Made by a program: the position numbers and the translations under genes. The notes under the pieces were generated by a model, which saw nothing but the letters and a program-made list of their open reading frames with translations, was not told the origin of the DNA and did no database searches. 64,000 nucleotides of DNA from Minisyncoccota bacterium (lineage in GTDB: Bacteria; Patescibacteriota; Minisyncoccia; Phycocordibacterales; Phycocordibacteraceae), in assembly GCA_041660025.1 (NCBI GenBank), contig JBAZXD010000001.1:305851-369850 (forward strand), in the 5' to 3' direction. Below, in pieces: positions 1,608 through 34,137 of the stretch (positions are counted from its first letter, which is position 1; the number at the start of each line of letters is the position of its first letter).

Positions 1608-1636
1608 AGGTCGCAATCGGCTATAGTTATCGCATT

Positions 1637-1720
1637 GCGTCGGTGGCGGAGTGGTCAATCGCAACAGGCTGTAAACCTGTCGGGCATAGCCCTACGAAGG
1701 TTCGAATCCTTCCCGGCGCA
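1637..1720 (+). tRNA. tRNA-Tyr (anticodon GTA), type II with long variable arm, no encoded CCA
   Basis: Manually folded: acceptor GCGTCGG/CCGGCGC (one G-U pair), D arm GCGGAGTGGTCAATCGC, anticodon stem ACAGG/CCTGT with loop CTGTAAA (GTA), long variable arm CGGGCATAGCCCTAC, T arm GAAGG-TTCGAAT-CCTTC, discriminator A. Confidence 0.85.
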
Positions 1721-1861
1721 CAGATTGAGCAAAGCGAAATATGTGCGCCGGAGCACGCCTGGGAGGCGTGTGTGAAGGATTCGAAGACCTTGCGAGCATC
1801 CGCGCTTTGGCGGATCCGCAAGGTGTACTGAAACTGTAAGTTTCGAAAAGCGTACTCGCGG

Positions 1862-1878
1862 TCCTTCCCGGCGCACCA
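1862..1878 (+). repeat. Direct repeat of tRNA-Tyr 3' end (TCCTTCCCGGCGCA + CCA); possible att-site scar or tRNA pseudogene fragment
   Basis: 14-nt exact copy of tRNA positions 1707-1720, here followed by CCA, lies 155 nt downstream. Upstream of it are degenerate T-arm-like segments (gaaggattcgaagacctt, gtttcgaa). Confidence 0.45.
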
Positions 1879-1896
1879 TGCATATTTAAATTAAAT

Positions 1897-1925
1897 AAGG
1901 CCAGCGATTCTGCTGGCCTTATAAA
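1897..1925 (+). terminator. Stem-loop GGCCAGC-gattct-GCTGGCC followed by TTATAAAT
   Basis: Perfect 7-bp GC-rich inverted repeat followed by a T/A-rich run; sits at the 3' end of the minus-strand Cys-rich ORF. Confidence 0.4.
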
Positions 1926-1955
1926 TAATCAATAAATCACGAGAATTTATTTGGT

Positions 1956-2300
1956 CTACAATCTTCCGCAACCACCACCAGTATTACCGATTTTTCTTGA
2001 TGTTTTTTTGACCCATAAATATCTTCTATTGTCCGGAACCACGAAGGAAACGTGCTTTCCTTCACTATACTCGACTTCAGTAACACAATGTCTCGCACTG
2101 CCTTCAACTTGTTCAACACTCCATCCTGAAAACCAGGGTGGTTTTGAGTCCTCCCAACGTTCCTCAGAGTCTGTGACCGTCTCTCTGGTGTCCCATTCCT
2201 TCCATGCCGCACAGTCTGAGGTACAGCACTTGCCGGAATCATCACCTACCCCAAAGGGGCATTTCTTCTGAGACCAATGGCGGCGGGCTTGTTCGGACAT
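1956..2300 (-). CDS. Hypothetical small cysteine-rich protein (orphan, low-GC)
   Basis: 114-aa ORF preceded by a good SD (aaggagtaaaatcATG). Cys-rich (CPFG...CCTSDC...HC). No family recognised. AT-rich relative to neighbours. Confidence 0.45.
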   Translation of the reverse strand: MSEQARRHWSQKKCPFGVGDDSGKCCTSDCAAWKEWDTRETVTDSEERWEDSKPPWFSGWSVEQVEGSARHCVTEVEYSEGKHVSFVVPDNRRYLWVKKTSRKIGNTGGGCGRL

Positions 2301-2586
2301 GATTTTACTCCTTCGAAAGAACGGCGGACCTGTTTAGGAATTGAGTCGGTCAAATGCTTGGCAGTGGGATAGAAAATTCTCTTTCCACCTCCGCTCAAAC
2401 AATAACACCGTAGATTTATTTGTCAAAACCTTTGTTATCCACAATCAGTTCCCGAGACAGATTTTTGGTAAGGAATAAGATACGCTTGTGTAATTCGTAA
2501 ACGTGTGGTATTACAGTCGGTGGATGCGGCTTTACCGTGACTCTGTTTCCTTGTAAAACTCACACAAACGAAAAAGGAGAATACCG

Positions 2587-3621
2587 ATGAAAGCACTTCG
2601 TACAAGCGCGGTTCTCACTGCGTGCATTATTACGATTATGTTCAGCGGACGCATCGCGTTCGGCCAAGATGAGTCGCTGAGCAGTCGGATAGACTCTGCC
2701 TCGACTTCAGCCGAGGAGCAACGGCAAAAGAAAGAAGCGGCGATACCTCGCTGTGATGCTCCGGTCGGCTCGGTAACCATCGCCATGCCGGAACGCAACT
2801 GGTGGCAGCAATATCAGCTGCAATCGCCGGACGCGCTTATCAAGATGTACGTCGCCAAGTCCGGATGCTTTACGCTCGTTGACCGCGGCCGCGGTTTCGC
2901 CATCGCTGAACGCGAACGCGCGCTCGCAAGCGGCGGCAATCTACGGCAAGGATCGAATATCGGCGGCGGACAAATGAAGGCTGCTGATTTCGTCATTACC
3001 CCCGACATCGTAGTGAATAACAACAACTCCGGCGGCAGTGCGATCGGTGCGATCCTTGGGGCCTTTCTACCCGGACCTATCGGGATGATCGCAGGCCAAG
3101 TAAGGATCTCCGACAAGTCGGCTGACGTCACCCTCGCGGTAACGGATGTCCGCAGTTCGGAACAAGTCGTCCTCGCAGAAGGGCAAGCCACGAAGACTGA
3201 TGTCGGGTTCGGCGTTGCCGGTGGCGCGTTCATGGGCGGCGGTTTCGGCGCTGCAGGTGTAGGAAGCTACGCAAACACAGCACTCGGACAAGTGGTTGCG
3301 CTGGCCTACCTCGACGCCTACACGAAGATGGTCGCGAAGATACAAGTTCTCCGGCCGGCCGATGTGGTCGCCGTCGAACCTCCGTCTGCGGTCCAGGCTC
3401 CTCCGCCGCCTCTGGTTACGGCGGAACCGCGAGGAAAGCCTGTCGCAGTGGCGAAGGCAGGTTATCTCTACGATGGCCCTTCGGCAGAGAACCCCTCCAT
3501 CCGCAGTCTGTCTCCCGGTACCATCCTGTACTCGACATCCAAGAAATCGGGTGCGTGGGTGGAAGTAACGGACGACACCGGCAGGAAAGGATGGGTTTTC
3601 GGGAAGCTGCTCTTTCAGTGA
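2587..3621 (+). CDS. CsgG/HfaB-family (curli-secretion-channel-like) protein with N-terminal signal peptide and C-terminal SH3b domain
   Basis: Strong SD (aaaaggagaataccgATG). Hydrophobic signal peptide. The central region aligns block-wise to CsgG (LVDRGRGFAIAERERAL; ADFVITPDIVVNNNNSGGSAIGA; VGFGVAGGAF...GAAGVGSYANT; ALAYLDAYTKMV). C-terminal YLYDGPS...GAWVEVTDDTGRKGWVFGKLL resembles bacterial SH3. Confidence 0.55.
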   Translation: MKALRTSAVLTACIITIMFSGRIAFGQDESLSSRIDSASTSAEEQRQKKEAAIPRCDAPVGSVTIAMPERNWWQQYQLQSPDALIKMYVAKSGCFTLVDRGRGFAIAERERALASGGNLRQGSNIGGGQMKAADFVITPDIVVNNNNSGGSAIGAILGAFLPGPIGMIAGQVRISDKSADVTLAVTDVRSSEQVVLAEGQATKTDVGFGVAGGAFMGGGFGAAGVGSYANTALGQVVALAYLDAYTKMVAKIQVLRPADVVAVEPPSAVQAPPPPLVTAEPRGKPVAVAKAGYLYDGPSAENPSIRSLSPGTILYSTSKKSGAWVEVTDDTGRKGWVFGKLLFQ

Positions 3622-3634
3622 TCGCCCCCTCTAC

Positions 3635-3680
3635 AGGCCTCGGACAACAGTGTTGTTCCGAGGCTGTTTTTTATTCGATA
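3635..3680 (+). terminator. Rho-independent terminator
   Basis: gcctcggacaacag-tg-ttgttccgaggc hairpin followed by TGTTTTTTATT. Confidence 0.55.
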
Positions 3681-3696
3681 TGCTATCGTATTCGGT

Positions 3697-4656
3697 ATGG
3701 CAGACAATAAACCCGTTCTTGTCTCCGGCGTGAAGCCGACCGGCGACCTGCATATCGGCAACTATTTCGGCGCGATGCGCCAGTTCGTCGAGCTGGCAAA
3801 AGGCGGGAAGTATCGCCCCTTCATCTTCGTCGCCGACTACCACGCGCTGAACTCGATGCAGGATGCCGAGGAGATGAAACGGCGCACTCGCGAGATAGTG
3901 ATGGCGTATCTCGCTGTCGGCCTCGACCCAAAGGAGATCACCTTTTTCAAACAATCAGACGTACCTGCGCACACCGAGCTTTGTTGGATTTTCGATACTA
4001 TCACCACGATGCCGTACTTGATGCGCGCCCACGCCTTCAAAGACGCGGAGGCGAAGAATAAAGAAATCAACGTCGGGACCTTCAACTACCCGATGCTGAT
4101 GGCGGCCGACATACTCCTCTACGACGCCGCGGTCGTGCCGGTCGGTGCCGACCAGAAACAGCATATCGAGATAGCGCGCGACACGGCAGAGAAATTCAAC
4201 CGTACGTTCAAGACGAGCGTCTTCACGCTCCCCGAGCCATACATTCTGCCAGACGTCGCGGTCGTTCCTGGCACCGACGGACAGAAGATGAGCAAGAGCT
4301 ATGGGAATGTCATCCCGCTCTTCGGTACGCGCGACGAGCTCGCAAAAGCCGTGATGGGCATCGTCACCGATTCAAGCGGAGAGCGTCCCGAAAACGTGTA
4401 CCGGATACACCGACTCTTCAGAAGCGAGGTGAATCTCAATGCGCTCTACGACGAGCATCGCGGCAATTATAAAGCGCTGAAAGAAACGCTCATCGAAGAC
4501 CTGGACCGCTACCTCGCGCCGATGCGCGCGAAGTATGAAGAGCTCAAAGAAGATTCCGGCATCGTGGACGAAGTTTTGGAGAACGGGAAGCGCGAAGCGC
4601 GTTTCGTCAGCGAGGGCAAGATGGAACAGGTCCGCAAGGCTATTGGTGTAGCATAA
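3697..4656 (+). CDS. trpS: Tryptophanyl-tRNA synthetase
   Basis: HIGH-type motif (GDLHIGNYFG) and KMSKS; the ~320-aa length is typical of bacterial TrpRS. Confidence 0.92.
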   Translation: MADNKPVLVSGVKPTGDLHIGNYFGAMRQFVELAKGGKYRPFIFVADYHALNSMQDAEEMKRRTREIVMAYLAVGLDPKEITFFKQSDVPAHTELCWIFDTITTMPYLMRAHAFKDAEAKNKEINVGTFNYPMLMAADILLYDAAVVPVGADQKQHIEIARDTAEKFNRTFKTSVFTLPEPYILPDVAVVPGTDGQKMSKSYGNVIPLFGTRDELAKAVMGIVTDSSGERPENVYRIHRLFRSEVNLNALYDEHRGNYKALKETLIEDLDRYLAPMRAKYEELKEDSGIVDEVLENGKREARFVSEGKMEQVRKAIGVA

Positions 4657-26145: not shown

Positions 26146-29100
26146 TTACGGCGTCGTTGTCGTCGCGCTCGCCGTAGTATCGGTCGTAGCGGTTGTGTCC
26201 GTTGTGGCGGCGGTAGTATCAGTCGTTGTCGTAGTTGTGTCGGCTGTAATGGTTGTATCCGTTGTCGTGGTGGCTGTGTCGGTCGTTACGATAGTCGTAT
26301 CGGTCGTCGTTGTAGTCGTGTCTGTCGGCGGAGTGGTAGTAGCTGTGTCGGTCGTAGTGGTCGCGGTAGTTGAGTCGGTCGTCAATGAGACGTCCGTAAT
26401 GGTAATGGTCGCGTCCACCAAGGTCGTCGACGTGGCTATCGGGGTGATTGATATATCCGTGGTGGATGCCGTTCCCGAAGTGCCCGTCGCCTGAGTGTTC
26501 ACGAATGCCAAGAGCGCCTTCACATCGTCCTTGGTGAGACACTGGTCATCCACACAGATCTTCTCGCTTGCGCGGAATGTCTTTGCAAAGAGGTCTCCGA
26601 TGCCGTTGCTCGCATTCGCGAACCAGCTCGTTATCTGCTCGGTGGAAGAGGCGATTGATATCATCGGCGACCCGCTTGCGCTGCTCACTGCCCCGCTCTC
26701 AAGGGCGGCTACACGGTCCTCAAGCGAGGTCATACGGGTGGTAAGAGCCTCTACCTTGGCGACCAGGGCCTGGGTGGCGGCGAGGTTGAAGGTGGCGAGC
26801 TTGTAGAGGTCCACGCCCAGCCCATCCGGGGAGAGGATTTCGGGGGCGATGGTAGCCGCATCTTCTGCGATGAAGCCCAGGCGGAGTGGGTCCTGCTGGT
26901 CCTCTATTGTATAGCGATAGGTGGCGACCTTGAGATTCACGAGTTGGTCGAGCATATCGTCGGTGGAGGAAGCGTTGAGATAATTGATGTCGGTCTTGGC
27001 CGAGCGGGTGGAAGTGTTGATGAAGCCGGTGGCGCCGATGTCCCCTGCGACCGTGAGGGTGTGGTTCGGGGTGGAAGTGCCGATGCCGATGTTTCCGGAA
27101 GCATCAATCGTGAGTACGGTCGTGGTGCCGAAATTGTTTTGGATAAATGCGGTCGTGAAAGCAATTTCCTGGATGGCCGAAGTCAAAACGGGGACAAATT
27201 TCTCATAATTAAGAGTGTAGTACCCGTCCGGTCCCATCGTCACTGTTTCCGGAAACAGCGGCAATACTTGTTGTGCGATAAAACCGAGTTGGGTTGACGT
27301 TGAAATTGCGAACGTCGGATGCTGGTCATAATAGAGCTGGTTCCATGTGTGGGTTATCGGCTGTATCTGCATAATGCGTGCAAGAGTGGAGCCTAACGGC
27401 TGTATATTCGTCTTTAATCTCTCATCAGATGCCTGGCTCATACACCAAGAATACTGGGTGCTGCAAATGTTTCCGGCCATCGTTAGAAGGCCGCCCATAG
27501 TCATATCAAAGAGATCCGCCGGAGCCGACCAGCCACCGATGCGGAAGACGTTGTCGGAATCAAGCCCCATATTGACGGCGTAGGCTCCAGCGCGATGGAA
27601 GCTCATCGTCGCGCCACTTCCATTATTGGAATATGCCACAAGGGTCTGACATCCTGCACAAGCAGTATCGTTATTAGAAATAAAATTGTTTCCAGCACTC
27701 CATGTTCCCGTCAAGGCGCTGACATTTGTCGCAGTTCCCCCGTTTGCCGGCGCGCTTCCGGCAGTATTGGCATAGCTCACGCTGAAGTTGGATGGGTTCC
27801 ATACATAGTAATTTGAGCCGTCGTTTGAGCCCCAGAGCCACGACGGCTGGCCTCCCTGCCCGCTCCAGTTAAACGGTTTACTTGAAACATTGCCCCACGC
27901 AACGCTATTCGCCGCCCCAGCAGTTAAGCTCGCCGCCGTTCCCGAGAGACCCGCGCCAGAACCATTGAATTGAGAAGCGGAGACAGCACCTGTTGCGGAG
28001 ATAGTGCCTGCCGATGAGACAGTATTAAAATGGCTGTCATTGTTTAGGTCAATATAGTAAGTGGTACTGCTATCAAGGTCATACATATACCGAGAACGAA
28101 GGCTTCCATCCGTCTGCGTGATAAACCCGCCTTGGGCGCTTAGAGTACCGGCAGCCGCGACGGTGCCAGTGAAACTCGCAGCACTTGAAATCGTCTGGCC
28201 GTTGATAGTGCTTGCCGCATTTATAGTACCGGCGCTGTTTATGACGATGTTGCCGTTCGCCGATGAGATGCCGGTGTCGCTCATATACATCGAGCCCGTG
28301 CCGGTGCGGAGCGTCCCCTTCACCCACAGGTTGCTCGCGAAGGTAGAGGTGGCGTTTGTGCCCGTGCCGTTCACATCGATGAAGCCCGCGAAAGTTGAAG
28401 TCGCGCTTTCCGAGGTAGCGGTGAAGTACGGGGCTGAGATTGAAGAAGTGGCAGTGAACCCACTCGCGGTGATGGTGCCGTCGAAGACTGCGTCCCCTGC
28501 GACGGAGAGTTTCGCATACGGACTCGTCGTCCCGATACCGACGTTGCCATTTGATAAAATTTTAACCTGGCTAGTAGAGTTATTAGCCGACAAATCAATA
28601 CCGCCTACTGCGTTTGTGGCAATAGCATAAGAACCGTTTGTGTCAAAATAACGGTCAAGCCCTGTGTAACCAACTTTATTAATGCCATTAATTTGGCCAT
28701 CTGAACGGAAAACCGCCACATAATTTGCTGAATTATTATTCGCTACAGCAAAAACCCTGGCCACTGCGGGCGCGTTTGTAGAGTTAGTTTCTATGTCAAG
28801 TTGATACTGCGGACTCGTCGTCCCGATGCCGACGTTGCCGGTTGTTGTGATGTTCCCTGCGTTGTCTAGTCTCAGTCTCTCTGCTGTTGATGATGCGTCG
28901 TAGAACCTTAATCCGCCGGCAGAATCGGCTCCGGCAATATTTGAAATTTGCCAGAAATGCGCATTGGCTCCTGAATTGTTTAATGACACGGAAAAATCAC
29001 CTGTGTCCGCGAAGGTTGCCGTTCTGGCGCTTAAAAGTCCACCTGAATCAATTGACGCAACAACTGAATCGTTACTGTTTTTCCATTGGGTCAAGTTTGC

Positions 29101-32100
29101 TGTCTGTCCGGCAAAGCCTCTCACTATTAGACCAATATCGGAAACCGCGCCGGAGTTTATTTGTAATTTTGCCCCCGGATTCGCCGTCCCAATCCCCACA
29201 TTCCCGCCGTTCGTGACGATGAAGTTTGTGGCGGTGGAACTCCCGACGACGAATGCGGGGCCCGTGATGCCATTCGGATTCACGCTCAACTGCCCCCACG
29301 GGCTCGTCGTCCCGATGCCGACGTTGCCTTGAGCATCAACAACAGACAAAGCCACATTGCTGCTATTTTGCCATTCAGTCAAATTGGCTGTTTGGGATGC
29401 CGCTGCCCGAACAACAAATGTTTTTACGCCCGTACCACCACTTGTTATAAGAACCCCCGGATTAGTGCCGATGTCACCACGGGGTTCAAAACGAATAGAA
29501 GTTCCATATTCTGTAATAGGAACACTGAGTTTTATATTGCTTGTATGTACACCAAACTGAGGAGAAGAGGCAAGTGACGCATTCGGTGCCCAAAGGCCTA
29601 GAACATTCCATGTCGATCCCTGAATACCTACATAAGCAGTCGTGCCGTCTGTCGTCTTTATGGCCAACTGCCCCGCACTAGTACCCGCGACTGTCCCTGA
29701 CGACAGGGTAAGCAAATTGGTCGGCGCTGCCGTCCCAATCCCCACATTCCCCCCGTTCGTCACAATGAAGTTGGTGGCGGTAGAGGAACCGACGACGAAT
29801 GCGGGGCCCGTGATGCCGTTCGGGTTCACGCTCAACTGTCCCCACGGACTCGTCGTCCCGATGCCGACGTTGCCTTGAATTATCATTCCGTCTGTCGGCG
29901 CGGCAATAGCAGCATATGTGCTACCGATGCTCACGTTACCAGTCACGCCAAAACGACTTCCAAAAGTAGTACCATTGCCAACAATTACCTTTTGGTTGGC
30001 AGTATCATAGCTCATAAAGTAATCAGCACCGTTCCCCAACACTCCTATCTTCCCTACATCTCTTTGTGTGTAATTAAAGTAGGTACTGGCGTCAATATAT
30101 AATAGCTGACCGGTAGATTTTACCCAGCCAGCGATATTCAATTTGTAACCCGCGGGGTCTATCGTCCCAATCCCCACATTCCCCCCGTTTGTCACGATGA
30201 AGTTCGTGGCGGTGGACGAGCCAACAACGAAGGCTGGGCCCGTGATGCCGTTCGGATTCACGCTCAACTGCCCCCACGGGCTCGTCGTCCCGATGCCGAC
30301 GTTGCCGTTATTTAGAATCCTCATCGCTTCCGTCGCGCCGTTGTTCCCCGTCTGGAATATTATATCTGCACCAGTTGTTCCTACTCCACTGGTAGAACGC
30401 AAGGTTAATGGAGTAGCTACTCCATTCCCACCGTAGTAAATACTTCCACCAGTACTTAAAGTAGCTAATACTCCAGAACCCACTTGTAAGGTGATGGGAT
30501 TGTTCACACTATAAAGTTGCATTCCACTTGATGCTCCACCACTAATTGCACTATAAGAACCAAAATAGCCAATGGTAGTTCCAGCTCTTGAAAAGGTCAT
30601 ACTAGGCCCTGTACTACTATTACTCCCGCCATCTATGGTGATGGTTGGAGAACTGGCTATTGCTCCATTCCCAACAGTAAGCAATGTTCCCGGACTCGCC
30701 GTCCCAATCCCCACATTCCCCCCGTTTGTCACGATGAAGTTCGTGGCGGTGGAACTTCCGACGACGAAGGCGGGGCCGGTGATGCCGTTTGGATTCACGC
30801 TCAACTGCCCCCACGGGCTCGTCGTCCCGATGCCGACGTTCGCCCCGTTCCCAAGTATCAAGCTGTTTGATGCGGTAACCTGGGCATTATAGCCAATTGC
30901 GGTGGCGTTGGTCAGATTATTGGTTGAGCCGTTGCCGGCATCGTAACCGATGAAAGTATTATTACTTCCCGTCGTGTTGGAAATTCCGGCTCTCATGCCA
31001 AGAGCAGTATTACCTGTGCCGGTTGTATTACCTCCTAATGCGTTCCAACCAAGCCCCGAGTTCCGTTCTCCGACTCCGGTCGTTAGACTAAGCGCGCTTG
31101 CGCCGACGGCAGTATTATAATTAGCGGTCGTATTCGCCTGCAATGCCGAATTGCCAATTGCAGTATTCTCGCCTCCGCTTGTATTGTATCTTAAGGAACT
31201 AACACCTACTGCCGTATTTGTGGATCCTCCTGCATTACTTTGAAGAGCAACATATCCTATGGCTATATTGGAGTAACCGGTTGTAACGCCAGGTAGAGCA
31301 TAATTACCCAAAGCAATATTTTGTCCTATGCCGGAAGTTGTTAAATTACCGCTAGGAGAACCGATAAAAATATTTTCCGTTCCGGTCTTGTGAATGAAAG
31401 TTGCACCGTTAAATTGGTATGTTGAAGTCGCGTTTACATTAGAAGCAACAATATCCCCGACAACCGAGAGTTTCGCGTACGGACTCGTCGTCCCGATGCC
31501 GACGTTGCCGGAAGCTGAAATACGCATTTTTTCGGAGAGGGACTGAAGTGTAGTCCCTGACGAGCCTGCGTCTGACGTTGAGAATGTAAGAGCTCCTCCC
31601 TCTGCGTTGCCGGTAGCTTTTCCTCCAGCCAAGGTAACACTTGCGCCGGCAATATTTGTACCTGACCCACCTGTCCCGTTAAGAACAAATCCCGAAGGGG
31701 TCGCGCTAATAATCCCTTTCCCAAAATAAGCCGTCGTAATGGCTTGAGTTGAGTCGTCGGCGCCAACGACAAGGGTATTCGCAACATTTGATAATGAACC
31801 CTGCCCGATAGCTATAGCTCCGAGGGCGGTTGCGCTCGCGCTCTGACCTAAAGCAAGAGCCCTTTCGGCAGACGCGACCGAACTTCCTCCAACGGCCGTT
31901 GACAAAGCACCGCTGGCGGATGTGTTGTGGCCAATTGCTGTAGAAATACTGTTAGCGGCTGATGCGTTGTAACCAAATGCAACACTGCTCCCCCCACTGG
32001 CGCTGGCCCCTCTGCCTATAGCAGTACTTAAGCTGGCCGATACTGATGCTCCGTGCCCAACAGCCAAGCTGTCTGCGGAAGTGCCTGTTGTTGATAAGTA

Positions 32101-34137
32101 ACCAACAGCCATTGACCTGTCTCCATTTGCAATGGAACCAAAACCAAACTTTTCACTTTGAGAACCGGAGCCCGGACTCGTGATGTTGCCCGTCACAATC
32201 GCGGCTCCAGCCACAGACAGCAAGTTGTATGGCGAGGTCGTCCCCACCCCCACATTCCCGCTGCCGGTCACCGTGAAGAATGTCGTGGCCGACGAAGAGG
32301 AAGAAATGCGGAATACGTCGCCGGTCTGTCCGGCGACGCTCTGGAGGGTGAGGGTGGTGTTGGTGGTGGAAGCAGAGGCGTCCTGGATGAAGAGCGGGTG
32401 ATTGAATTCGAAGCGCTTGGCGGATTCAGCCGAGTTCCAGGTGAGGAGGGCGTTCGGGGATATGGTGCCTCGCTCAAAGGAGAGATACGCGTTCTCGGTG
32501 TCGGCAGTGGCGTTGTCGGAGTTGATGTTGAAGGTCTCGGCGGTGAGGTTGCCTCCCGTGAGGGTGCCGACGATGGTGGAGGCGTTCACTTCGTTCGCGT
32601 AGATCTTGTCGAAGCGGACGGCGGGGGTGCCGATGTCCACCGTGTCGTCGAGGGCCTGGATGTTGCCGATGATGGTGTTAGAGCCGATGCGGAGGGTGCC
32701 GGCTGATGCGGTGATGTCGTGGTTGCCGGAGCCTGTGAAGGTGATACCGGAGCCTGTGCCGGTGAGGTACGCTCCAGTGCTTCCTCCCACCGAGAAGTTC
32801 CCGGAGAAGGAAGAAGTGGCTGAGGAGTCGGTCGCCATGAAGTTCTGCCCCACGACCTGTCCAGCAATGGAGAGGAGCGAGTACGGACTTGTGGTGCCGA
32901 TGCCGATGTACCCGGTTGTGGAGTCGACGACGAGCTTGTCGGTGCCGACCGTGAGCCCGCCGGCGAAGGTACTCGTGGCGGTGGTGGAGGTGGCAACGAA
33001 GTGTGGTGCGGTGGCGCTCTGGTATGAGGTGAGGGCGCCGGTGGCGATGAGAGAGCCGGAGGTGAAATCGTCGGCGGTGAGGGTATCGAAGGCGCCGCTC
33101 GTGGCAGAGACGCTGGTGCCGTTCGTGAGCGCGCCACCGTCGAAGGTGCCGCCCCTGAAGTCGCCGTTTCGTACGATGAGGTCAGAGAGGTCTTCGATCA
33201 TATTGACCTGCTGGATGGTGGTGACGTTGGTGGCCACCTGGCTCGCAACGGGCTGGATGAGGCTCGAGACCCGCGTGAGGAGCTCGGTGCGGAGCGAGGT
33301 GAGGGACTGGTTGACGAAGTCTTCGGAGACGCCACGGACGATGGTGGAGTAGTAGTTGGTGGGGTTGAGGGTGGTAACGACACGGGTGACGGCAGGAGGA
33401 GTGATGCTTGCCCTGTTGGGTGCGGAACTATCTGATGGGGGGGCGACGGGGAATGCTGGCTCGCTGGTCACAAGCTGAGATTCATCGAACGGCATCGTGG
33501 CCGGTAGTGGATTAGAGACAACGGCGAGGGGCGATGGCTCGTTAAAGATCCCTGCGAGCACATCTTGGGTACGAGAGAAAAGGCCGTTGATAGTTTCGTA
33601 CGTAGCAAGCGCCACCTGTTCCCCGAATGAAAGCGTGGGCTGAGCGGCGGCAACTGCCGCGATTTGTTTCTCGTTATTCGTGAGATGTGGAACGATTGTA
33701 GATTGCGCCGCGACTATTCCCAGCACGACGATGAATGTTGCGACAGAGAATGCGAATACATTGGTGCGCAATGATGCGCTCCAAATATCGAACCGCGACG
33801 CCGAGTGGTGTGAGAGCGAACGGGACAGTTCCGACGGGAGTTGCTGTTGAAGTGGTTTTGTCAGAGCCTTTACCGTGCGACGTACTGGAGGACGGTGCGA
33901 ATGGTATTCAGCCGCGTGGACGCGGGAACGGATCTGCGAAAGTTCTTCCTTGCGTTCCGCCTGCAGGTCAAGGAAGCGGATGAGCGAGTTGCGTTTGATC
34001 ATCCACACCTTGCCAACCTGAACTCCTTCGACTTCGCCGGACCGCGCAAGACGTCGGAGATAGCTCGAAGTATATCCGGAAAGTTTTCCAGCGTACCGAG
34101 TCGTTATCAGATCTTTTTTATATAAATTCGATTTCAT
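26146..34137 (-). CDS. Giant (2663 aa) membrane-anchored surface protein of phage-tail-fibre type. N-terminal HTH, one TM helix, long GNVGIGTTSP-type repeat region, two tandem S74-like intramolecular chaperone/autoprotease modules, coiled coil, Thr-rich tail
   Basis: Single uninterrupted ORF. The N-terminus carries an excisionase/MerR-like HTH (LSGYTSSYLRRLARSGEVEGVQVGKVWMI). A TM helix (FAFSVATFIVVLGIVAA) follows. More than 10 copies of the GxVGIGTTSP(W/Y)xxLxV tail-fibre motif are present. The SDERLKTNI and SAKTDINYL segments, each followed by a GFIAQQ/GFIAED block, resemble peptidase S74. The C-terminus is a TDTT low-complexity tail. Confidence 0.85.
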   Translation of the reverse strand: MKSNLYKKDLITTRYAGKLSGYTSSYLRRLARSGEVEGVQVGKVWMIKRNSLIRFLDLQAERKEELSQIRSRVHAAEYHSHRPPVRRTVKALTKPLQQQLPSELSRSLSHHSASRFDIWSASLRTNVFAFSVATFIVVLGIVAAQSTIVPHLTNNEKQIAAVAAAQPTLSFGEQVALATYETINGLFSRTQDVLAGIFNEPSPLAVVSNPLPATMPFDESQLVTSEPAFPVAPPSDSSAPNRASITPPAVTRVVTTLNPTNYYSTIVRGVSEDFVNQSLTSLRTELLTRVSSLIQPVASQVATNVTTIQQVNMIEDLSDLIVRNGDFRGGTFDGGALTNGTSVSATSGAFDTLTADDFTSGSLIATGALTSYQSATAPHFVATSTTATSTFAGGLTVGTDKLVVDSTTGYIGIGTTSPYSLLSIAGQVVGQNFMATDSSATSSFSGNFSVGGSTGAYLTGTGSGITFTGSGNHDITASAGTLRIGSNTIIGNIQALDDTVDIGTPAVRFDKIYANEVNASTIVGTLTGGNLTAETFNINSDNATADTENAYLSFERGTISPNALLTWNSAESAKRFEFNHPLFIQDASASTTNTTLTLQSVAGQTGDVFRISSSSSATTFFTVTGSGNVGVGTTSPYNLLSVAGAAIVTGNITSPGSGSQSEKFGFGSIANGDRSMAVGYLSTTGTSADSLAVGHGASVSASLSTAIGRGASASGGSSVAFGYNASAANSISTAIGHNTSASGALSTAVGGSSVASAERALALGQSASATALGAIAIGQGSLSNVANTLVVGADDSTQAITTAYFGKGIISATPSGFVLNGTGGSGTNIAGASVTLAGGKATGNAEGGALTFSTSDAGSSGTTLQSLSEKMRISASGNVGIGTTSPYAKLSVVGDIVASNVNATSTYQFNGATFIHKTGTENIFIGSPSGNLTTSGIGQNIALGNYALPGVTTGYSNIAIGYVALQSNAGGSTNTAVGVSSLRYNTSGGENTAIGNSALQANTTANYNTAVGASALSLTTGVGERNSGLGWNALGGNTTGTGNTALGMRAGISNTTGSNNTFIGYDAGNGSTNNLTNATAIGYNAQVTASNSLILGNGANVGIGTTSPWGQLSVNPNGITGPAFVVGSSTATNFIVTNGGNVGIGTASPGTLLTVGNGAIASSPTITIDGGSNSSTGPSMTFSRAGTTIGYFGSYSAISGGASSGMQLYSVNNPITLQVGSGVLATLSTGGSIYYGGNGVATPLTLRSTSGVGTTGADIIFQTGNNGATEAMRILNNGNVGIGTTSPWGQLSVNPNGITGPAFVVGSSTATNFIVTNGGNVGIGTIDPAGYKLNIAGWVKSTGQLLYIDASTYFNYTQRDVGKIGVLGNGADYFMSYDTANQKVIVGNGTTFGSRFGVTGNVSIGSTYAAIAAPTDGMIIQGNVGIGTTSPWGQLSVNPNGITGPAFVVGSSTATNFIVTNGGNVGIGTAAPTNLLTLSSGTVAGTSAGQLAIKTTDGTTAYVGIQGSTWNVLGLWAPNASLASSPQFGVHTSNIKLSVPITEYGTSIRFEPRGDIGTNPGVLITSGGTGVKTFVVRAAASQTANLTEWQNSSNVALSVVDAQGNVGIGTTSPWGQLSVNPNGITGPAFVVGSSTATNFIVTNGGNVGIGTANPGAKLQINSGAVSDIGLIVRGFAGQTANLTQWKNSNDSVVASIDSGGLLSARTATFADTGDFSVSLNNSGANAHFWQISNIAGADSAGGLRFYDASSTAERLRLDNAGNITTTGNVGIGTTSPQYQLDIETNSTNAPAVARVFAVANNNSANYVAVFRSDGQINGINKVGYTGLDRYFDTNGSYAIATNAVGGIDLSANNSTSQVKILSNGNVGIGTTSPYAKLSVAGDAVFDGTITASGFTATSSISAPYFTATSESATSTFAGFIDVNGTGTNATSTFASNLWVKGTLRTGTGSMYMSDTGISSANGNIVINSAGTINAASTINGQTISSAASFTGTVAAAGTLSAQGGFITQTDGSLRSRYMYDLDSSTTYYIDLNNDSHFNTVSSAGTISATGAVSASQFNGSGAGLSGTAASLTAGAANSVAWGNVSSKPFNWSGQGGQPSWLWGSNDGSNYYVWNPSNFSVSYANTAGSAPANGGTATNVSALTGTWSAGNNFISNNDTACAGCQTLVAYSNNGSGATMSFHRAGAYAVNMGLDSDNVFRIGGWSAPADLFDMTMGGLLTMAGNICSTQYSWCMSQASDERLKTNIQPLGSTLARIMQIQPITHTWNQLYYDQHPTFAISTSTQLGFIAQQVLPLFPETVTMGPDGYYTLNYEKFVPVLTSAIQEIAFTTAFIQNNFGTTTVLTIDASGNIGIGTSTPNHTLTVAGDIGATGFINTSTRSAKTDINYLNASSTDDMLDQLVNLKVATYRYTIEDQQDPLRLGFIAEDAATIAPEILSPDGLGVDLYKLATFNLAATQALVAKVEALTTRMTSLEDRVAALESGAVSSASGSPMISIASSTEQITSWFANASNGIGDLFAKTFRASEKICVDDQCLTKDDVKALLAFVNTQATGTSGTASTTDISITPIATSTTLVDATITITDVSLTTDSTTATTTTDTATTTPPTDTTTTTTDTTIVTTDTATTTTDTTITADTTTTTTDTTAATTDTTATTDTTASATTTTP
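26149..26465 (-). repeat. Degenerate tandem repeat encoding a Thr/Asp-rich C-terminal tail
   Basis: DNA shows reiterated gtcgt(a/t)g.. units; protein reads TDTTATTDTT.. for ~105 aa. Confidence 0.6.
29190..30850 (-). repeat. Four near-identical ~140-bp intragenic DNA repeats at ~540-bp spacing, encoding identical 46-aa cassettes
   Basis: Repeated DNA blocks recur at about 29.2-29.33, 29.74-29.88, 30.17-30.30 and 30.70-30.85 kb, e.g. ggactcgtcgtcccgatgccgacgttgcc and attccccccgttcgtcacgatgaagtt.gtggcggtgga. Each encodes GNVGIGTTSPWGQLSVNPNGITGPAFVVGSSTATNFIVTNGGNVGIGT. Confidence 0.8.

Follow-up and report, generated by a model that had tools for sequence, protein, structure and literature searches.

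In integron attC sites, the CTX-phi attP(+) site and other Xer-dependent elements (IMEX), a single DNA strand forms a hairpin and thereby restores a double-stranded recombination site. A direct copy of the core site pairs with an inverted one, the repeats flank the insert, arrays build up at one site and the enzyme is supplied in trans. A similar architecture was found immediately downstream of the tRNA-Tyr gene in a 64,000-nt stretch of DNA from a Minisyncoccota bacterium (contig JBAZXD010000001.1, positions 305,851 to 369,850; the whole stretch is referred to as the window), where a 155-bp insertion contains a hairpin-shaped non-coding element of ~135 nt that may recombine in a similar manner. 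The element differs from attC in several respects. It lacks the RYYYAAC/GTTRRRY boxes by inspection, no intI was present among the open reading frames (ORFs) of the window that were scanned, and there is no attI nearby. Its stem copies 15–21 bp of a tRNA gene and varies by copy, its apical part is conserved whereas that of attC is variable, and most units have no cargo. Genomic islands and prophages at tRNA genes (those with P4-type integrases and the Prochlorococcus tycheposons) also insert at the tRNA 3′ end, regenerate the tRNA from an element-borne copy and leave a direct repeat. Their tandem accretion pushes old tRNA remnants outward, as is also observed for the element in two loci (L230 and L227; such labels designate loci of relatives or metagenomes). 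However, the element is only 155 bp long, contains neither an integrase nor cargo, and has an extra inverted copy of the target and a structured core.

The element can also be compared with short interspersed repeats and with structured RNAs. Like REPINs/REP sequences and miniature inverted-repeat transposable elements (MITEs; Correia, RUP, and ERIC), it is short, non-coding, multi-copy, intergenic, hairpin-forming and non-autonomous, and is often located beside terminators. REPINs and MITEs have conserved termini recognized by a transposase, whereas the termini of the element follow the neighboring tRNA and its center is conserved. The strict position after a tRNA gene is unlike theirs, and the repeat lies inside the hairpin, not outside. 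No link to a RAYT or transposase was seen in the 64-kb window and the locus fragments that were covered. Guide-bearing mobile RNAs, i.e. the internal guide sequence/P1 of group I introns, the exon- and intron-binding sites (EBS–IBS) of group II introns, IS110 bridge RNA and IS200/605, combine a core with target-complementary segments as the element does, with its 5′ arm antisense to the sequence just upstream of the insertion. In addition, the guide of the element finds a pairing partner inside the element, namely a copy of the target. At ~135 nt the element is far too small for a group I or II intron, and it has no Rfam match and no recombinase or reverse transcriptase ORF. The tRNA-like domain of transfer-messenger RNA (tmRNA), YrlA and viral tRNA-like structures share with the element stacked acceptor-like and T-stem-like helices and UUCGA, and some copies of the element end in CCA as these RNAs do. 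In contrast to them, its 5′ strand reverse-complements N73 and C74 to give a blunt end, its UUCGAA is the complement of a T-loop, and tRNA and tmRNA models (ARAGORN and Rfam CL00001) match only the true tRNA.

The tRNA-Tyr(GTA) gene of the window is a class II tRNA gene with a long variable arm on the + strand, as are all features of the element described below. The intact gene proposed in the original prediction, a note made earlier from the same DNA, was confirmed by both ARAGORN (1637–1721) and Rfam (1637–1720, 60.7 bits). It encodes position 74 (C) but not C75 and A76. Its last 15 nt, TCCTTCCCGGCGCAC (1707–1721; direct repeat 1, DR1), consist of T-loop nucleotide 60, the 3′ strands of the T-stem and acceptor stem, A73 and C74. 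An exact copy (DR2) is located at 1862–1876, with a start-to-start offset of 155 nt as given by a repeat finder; the earlier note had given the length of this repeat as 14 nt. Only these two exact copies of TCCTTCCCGGCGCAC occur in the window, and one extra site was found with two or fewer mismatches, compared with 0.35 expected. DR2 is followed by CA (1877–1878) and reads ...GCGCA-CCA, while the tRNA gene itself reads ...GCGCA-CAG. We take this CA to complete a CCA, and it appears to represent C75 and A76 as once encoded in the gene, moved aside when the insertion occurred.

A scan based on tyrosyl-tRNA synthetase yielded 80 loci, all from genomes of the Kaiserbacteria/Paceibacteria group within the candidate phyla radiation (CPR). 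The loci share a backbone of tyrS, tRNA-Tyr, trpS, and aspS, and the intervals flanking tRNA-Tyr vary from ~30 nt to several kb. In the compact loci L009, L040, and L034, tRNA-Tyr is followed by trpS within ~30 nt and there is no hairpin, which indicates that 1722–3696 of the window is inserted DNA, as is the kinase gene at 1080–1607. The tRNA-Tyr locus is a hotspot for variable DNA. The segment 1722–1876, comprising the spacer, 5′ arm, core and 3′ arm, is a 155-bp insertion that adjoins tRNA-Tyr. The idea of an inserted segment with a footprint-like repeat beside the tRNA therefore holds, but the AT-rich DNA at 1880–2580 that had been included in it, containing a terminator hairpin, a Cys-rich ORF and a promoter region, is separate variable DNA outside the repeat unit. 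A full element is present 3′ of tRNA-Tyr in seven of the relatives (L005, L007, L008, L035, L046, L036, and L079) and partial or variant forms occur at tRNA-Tyr in about a dozen further loci; ~26% of the Kaiserbacteria tRNA-Tyr loci have full or partial copies.

DR2 is one arm of an intact hairpin-shaped element (1743–1878) and not debris. The minimum free energy (MFE) predicted for this segment is −71.5 kcal/mol (z = −6.1). In the 5′ arm, the last 21 nt of the tRNA (positions 54–74) are present as their reverse complement, split by a small hairpin, P2. A conserved core of three hairpins (P4, P5, and P6) lies between the arms. The preceding spacer, AGATTGAGCAAAGCGAAATAT (1722–1742), belongs to a short-spacer class. 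In approximately two thirds of the other copies the spacer consists of an A-run, a GC hairpin and a T-run, so that the tRNA end, spacer and 5′ arm form a single long palindrome. The first part of the 5′ arm, GTGCGCCGG (1743–1751), is the complement of CCGGCGCAC, i.e. the acceptor 3′ strand with A73 and C74, and constitutes the 5′ strand of P1, which pairs with 1868–1876 within DR2. P2 (1753–1771) has 8 bp and a GGG loop within UGGGA. It is inserted exactly at the acceptor/T-stem junction of the arm (the 65/66 junction), and all eight of its pairs covary. The second part, GAAGGATTCGAA (1774–1785), is the exact reverse complement (100%) of TTCGAATCCTTC (1701–1712) in the T-loop and the T-stem 3′ strand. 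Within it, 1774–1780 forms P3 with 1861–1867 in the DR2 region, and P3 encloses a UUCGAAG sequence. The "degraded T-arm-like pieces" of the original prediction are thus exact inverted copies of the tRNA end, which had been overlooked. Pairing of the arms gives the folded strand a stem whose sequence is that of the double-stranded tRNA gene at its 3′ end. P1 pairs both N73 and C74, and the resulting blunt end argues against mimicry of a substrate of RNase P, synthetase or CCA-adding enzyme.

In the core, P4 (1787–1824) is a long hairpin with a variable tip and accounts for the nested palindrome noted earlier, which is real. The following segment (1825–1849), composed of a GUAC junction, P5 and an AAAA junction, is conserved; the P5 hairpin (1829–1845) has a UGUAA loop and a conserved U·G pair at its base. 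P6 (1850–1859; GCG-UACU-CGC) is a small hairpin that is missing from some copies and shows compensatory AUG/CAU variants. Across the family, the 3′ arm repeats tRNA positions 60–74 in direct orientation, most often as an exact 15-nt copy.

A covariance model (R1) was built from eight full copies (seven relatives and the window), and it gave 8 full matches with 123–163 bits in the 80 Kaiserbacteria loci plus the window. Metagenomes were searched with a pattern consisting of the conserved junctions only, and the model identified 92 copies within the 72 loci obtained. An upstream tRNA was detected for 55 of the 92 copies, and the element was always downstream on the same strand, usually 16–60 nt away. 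The neighboring tRNAs represent at least 12 isotypes (Tyr, Ile, Gln, Asn, Ser, Val, His, Lys, Leu, Arg, Trp, and Asp). The P1/P3 arms vary by copy and usually agree with the neighboring tRNA, while the core is conserved, and two or three copies are sometimes arranged in tandem. In a generic test, the flanks of 154 tRNAs were searched for the 3′ end of the respective tRNA, repeated first in inverted and then in direct orientation. This arrangement was present downstream of 41 and upstream of none, with a modal direct-repeat length of 15 nt.

The alignment of the eight full copies by MAFFT contained 48 consensus pairs, 15 of which had compensatory changes. In 88 distinct copies fitted to the covariance model, 92.9% of the cells were paired (36–47% with the partner slid), double changes occurred at 42 of the 48 pairs, and the observed values were reached in none of 500 shuffles. 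The MAFFT alignment, which is independent of the model, was in agreement. These results establish a conserved hairpin-shaped non-coding family of Paceibacteria/Kaiserbacteria (CPR) located downstream of many tRNA genes. The family is apparently undescribed so far. The Rfam 15 covariance models, including those of ribozymes and group I/II introns, gave no match over the element in the window (E ≤ 10) or in eight further loci (E ≤ 1), and full-text literature searches returned no description of such an element.

The relation of the 5′ arm to the tRNA was examined by its complementarity. Complementarity to N73 holds in 31 of 32 copies and to N74 in 28 of 32. Where the tRNA has a G·U pair, the base in the arm is the one complementary to the 3′ strand in 17 of 18 cases, and the variant T-loops TTCAAAT and TTCAAGT are present in the arm as reverse complements. 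All three observations indicate an arm that runs antisense to the tRNA gene at its 3′ end, and they rule out both a copy of the 5′ strands of the tRNA and mimicry of the T-loop.

The same arm architecture was observed with other cores, of at least two types (L013 7225–7372; L053; L193 1283–1405; L224; L251 2813–2978; L261 236–401; L012 and L018 downstream of tRNA-Tyr). The type 2 core is GGATTCGAA-AGACGGAGC...GAGTCGGGGTCGCGAG...GTGACCGAAA and the type 3 core is GGATTCGAACCGCGGGCCGCAGC...GGTTTCGAGCTCAGCAGAGCGAG. L062 has a minimal form with the arms and P6 only.

The distribution of encoded CCA and the comparison of copies bear on insertion and mobility. CCA is encoded in 3 of 41 tRNAs with the element and in 30 of 113 without it (p = 0.013), and DR2 is followed by CA in 8 of 24 copies, near the CCA frequency of element-free genes. 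This pattern fits insertion between positions 74 and 75. The elements of the window and L008 share 98% identity, which stops exactly at the end of DR2, compared with 76% for the tyrS genes of the two; in other pairs at similar tyrS divergence, the elements are 66–83% identical. In L013, L067, and L198, the arms correspond to a tRNA-Tyr variant different from the one at the locus, and shortened copies were found in L037, L041, L014, L067, and L078. Cores with 91–98% identity occur beside different isotypes, with different arms and P2. Tandem arrays combine different core types, and in front of every outer copy lie a spacer and what is left of a decayed tRNA 3′ end.

We propose with moderate confidence that this small insertion is selfish and non-autonomous and homes to tRNA genes, at whose 3′ ends it integrates. 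The inserted unit would be the 155 bp made up of the spacer, antisense arm, core and 15-bp repeat. Integration would occur by recombination inside the 15-bp repeat that ends at position 74. An intact tRNA gene would be regenerated, now lacking encoded C75-A76, and the original 3′ end with its flank would be pushed to the far side of the insert. The likely substrate is a folded single strand: a 155-nt circle could form a dumbbell whose stem mimics the target duplex, in the manner of integron attC sites and the attP(+) hairpin of the CTX phage, and a recombinase acting in trans would exchange strands within the repeat. The tRNA would stay functional, and the element could be precisely lost through its direct repeats.

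A GCGAAGC-type mini-hairpin recurs in the short spacers and P4 tips of many copies (e.g. the L005 spacer AAAATAAGCGAAGCGCATTTT and the P4 tip GGAGCGAAGCGAAC). GCGAAGC is an unusually stable DNA mini-hairpin, and the motif may hint at a single-stranded DNA stage.

Several points weigh against a homing element. No recombinase, excised form or empty/filled strain pair was seen, and the integration chemistry described above is purely inferred. The center is conserved and the ends are variable, which is the opposite of DNA transposons and attC. The conserved U·G pair (84 of 88 copies), the conserved junction nucleotides and the excess of G·U over A·C fit an RNA equally well or better. Retargeting between isotypes needs a change of both arms and P2, by a mechanism that is only assumed. 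Arm-plus-P2 modules look tRNA-type-specific with cores exchanged among them, a pattern that could equally be due to concerted evolution of resident paralogues, and the 98% identity to L008 could result from homologous replacement of a tRNA-plus-element block.

An enzyme or carrier was sought in several ways. In a Pfam census of 132 ORFs downstream of elements, housekeeping genes were found and no integrase, transposase or reverse transcriptase recurred, and all-versus-all clustering of 809 neighboring ORFs returned only synteny and housekeeping genes. Twenty scanned ORFs of the window are genes for the cell envelope, for division and for repair, with no recombinase among them, and no integrase appeared in the total of 25 that were scanned. 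Scans of viral contigs with the pattern gave chance matches only, and no copy was found by blastn against phage and plasmid collections; a phage or plasmid origin was rejected from these empty searches. No outer att or tRNA remnant above the shuffled background was detected at 1879–3700. The element was not called in a terminator scan, in which the only nearby call was the minus-strand hairpin at 1895–1922. An exact-protein look-up of the tryptophanyl-tRNA synthetase of the window for strain variants gave no record. ORFs with a ParB-like nuclease domain are located near elements in 3–5 metagenome loci (L252 639–2000; L195 1458–2750), with inconsistent adjacency.

The alternative that survives best, possible but in our judgment doubtful, is that the element acts in cis, as an RNA module transcribed together with the tRNA, and controls tRNA maturation or gives a processing or stability signal. 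It would act as a three-segment switch consisting of the tRNA 3′ half, the antisense 5′ arm and DR2. The core, as a sensor or protein-binding domain, would determine which of two partners the 5′ arm takes: DR2, so that the tRNA can fold freely, or the tRNA itself, by invasion. The invariable location on the tRNA strand immediately downstream, the co-evolution of the tRNA 3′ strand, 5′ arm and DR2 (L230, L036, L249, and L193), the conserved unpaired core nucleotides together with the conserved U·G pair, the larger number of G·U than A·C on the sense strand and the lack of an associated protein gene are all in agreement with an RNA. In addition, in the MFE structure of a read-through transcript (1637–1880) the 5′ arm takes up the 3′ half of the tRNA and DR2 takes up its 5′ end, suggesting that alternative pairings are energetically real. 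On the other hand, a strong terminator-like hairpin and U-run precede the element in about two thirds of the copies without room for a separate promoter, so that poor transcription is expected for many of them. The element is dispensable, as ~74% of the Kaiserbacteria tRNA-Tyr loci do not have it, and the shortened copies, foreign arms and mixed-core arrays resemble selfish DNA. The blunt end formed by N73 and C74 is unlike a substrate of RNase P, aminoacyl-tRNA synthetase or CCA-adding enzyme, and CCA follows DR2 in only 33% of the copies. The first gene downstream shares the strand of the element in 39 loci and lies on the opposite one in 22 (it is convergent in the window), so the element is not a leader, and a 5′ leader or riboswitch for the downstream gene was rejected on the same grounds. 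The original prediction had regarded a second copy within a functional RNA gene as speaking against a scar, and the present element comes close to this case, although its function as an RNA is only a possibility.

In the predicted read-through structure, the tRNA 5′ acceptor strand pairs with DR2 and CCA, so that the molecule would resemble a tRNA with a 155-nt insertion in the T-loop.

It is unlikely that the element is a passive, functionless DNA palindrome whose copies of the tRNA end were generated and kept complementary by template switching at the terminator hairpin (quasi-palindrome correction), with arm-to-arm conversion giving the appearance of covariation. The tRNA end, spacer and 5′ arm do form perfect palindromes of 25–30 bp in many copies (e.g. 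L249 and L193), and G·U and A·C are nearly equal in P4 (39:30). However, such a process leaves unexplained the conserved core and junctions, the constant position of P2 at 65/66, the fixed 15-nt repeat beside 12 isotypes in many genomes and the near-identical copy in a divergent genome (L008).

Least probable, and largely refuted by conservation, is the original prediction that the repeats are attL and attR of an excised or decayed classical tyrosine-integrase island with the rest as debris: the tRNA 3′ end is directly repeated, the hotspot has variable genes on both sides of the tRNA, and a restriction-modification island between element copies in L230 indicates that classical integration occurs at such tRNAs, but the 140 bp between the repeats are conserved in sequence and structure across 100 copies, the exact inverted copy of the tRNA end has no counterpart in att scars, the neighbors include no integrase gene or fragment, the outer border (1879–3700) has no tRNA remnant, and the AT-rich DNA lies outside the repeats, not between them. 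The flanking direct repeat is shared with an integrase scar, but there is neither an integrase nor cargo between the repeats and the sequence, with 100 homologous copies, is not decaying; instead of a decayed remnant, the element is a member of an intact, covarying family found beside at least 12 isotypes and with no recurrent integrase.

Further identities of the element or its parts were rejected. A second tRNA, tRNA-Sec or allo-tRNA, tmRNA, and permuted tRNA were discarded because ARAGORN and Rfam were negative and the arm reverse-complements N73 and N74. The P5 loop, CUGUAAG, is not a mimic of the Tyr anticodon, as the same loop occurs beside Asn, Ser, Gln, Trp, and other tRNAs. UUCGAAG as a T-loop mimic is incompatible with the reverse-complemented variant T-loops, e.g. 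ATTTGAA for TTCAAAT. The arm complements gene-encoded sequence, not CCA, which argues against a retroviral-type primer-binding site. Hammerhead and other self-cleaving ribozymes gave no Rfam signal, and the core is off their consensus by inspection.

The DNA around the homing-element candidate is variable on both sides. The low-GC islet described earlier at 1880–2580 is real, but it is wider and patchier than had been stated and reaches upstream of the tRNA: the windowed GC content is 0.39–0.46 at ~1900–2100, 0.51–0.53 at 2100–2400 and 0.40 at 2300–2600, and 0.44–0.46 at 1100–1600 over the kinase gene and tRNA. Outside the element, the terminator-like hairpin at 1895–1922 (− strand; 11 bp and a T-run) ends the Cys-rich ORF (1956–2300, − strand; 114 aa), which has no Pfam match and belongs to the variable DNA between the element and trpS. 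It is followed by a locus-variable gene for a CsgG-like + SH3 lipoprotein (2587–3621, + strand), whose homologues are present in only 4 of the 80 relatives (L003, L005, L023, and L066), on either side of the tRNA. On the 5′ side, a low-GC gene for an AAA_33/zeta-toxin-like P-loop kinase (1080–1607, + strand) lies between tyrS and tRNA-Tyr. It has a single weak homologue among the 80 relatives (L017, 29%), at another location, and looks like a separate insertion 5′ of the tRNA. A promoter-like site, TTGAAA-17-TATAGT (1599–1627, + strand), assigned by its match to the consensus only, is located 10 nt 5′ of tRNA-Tyr.

The tRNA-Tyr gene of the hotspot itself flips or moves. Its orientation with respect to tyrS is reversed in 12 of 74 related loci, whether or not the element is present (L005, L007, L008, L010, L017, L031, L048, L049, L060, L064, L066, and L069). 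In L230 (3185–5874), a restriction-modification island lies between two element copies, of which the outer is preceded by a decayed tRNA remnant. The island encodes an N6_N4 methyltransferase, a likely nuclease and two further ORFs, and classical islands also use these tRNAs, separately from the element. In L251 (794–2599, − strand), a 601-aa protein is encoded between element copies and contains a repeated motif of ~45 aa, W-Y-x-x-E-Y-K-N-H-x-G-W-P...Y-K-x-x-G-W. Elsewhere in the window, an ORF of 2663 aa is located at 26146–34137 (− strand).

At its most speculative, the element can be viewed as a programmable mobile nucleic acid free of protein genes, or else as a cis-acting RNA switch that gates the maturation of individual tRNAs; we entertain this only tentatively. 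In the programmable version, a structured core of ~70 nt would be combined with exchangeable guide-like arms, one antisense and one sense, that read the last 15–21 nt of a tRNA gene, and insertion at 74/75 would proceed via folded single-stranded DNA or RNA. For annotation, the locus is a warning that a duplicated tRNA 3′ end is not always the scar of a prophage or island. If the interpretation is correct, CPR bacteria carry a widespread and unnoticed family of tiny structured elements at the 3′ ends of many tRNA genes. Such an element would be either a minimal homing element, in which a folded strand imitates the target, or an RNA regulator with tRNA specificity. It would represent a new, tool-like principle in which the choice of target is encoded in 15–21 nt, and it would account for the variability of tRNA-flanking regions in these streamlined genomes.

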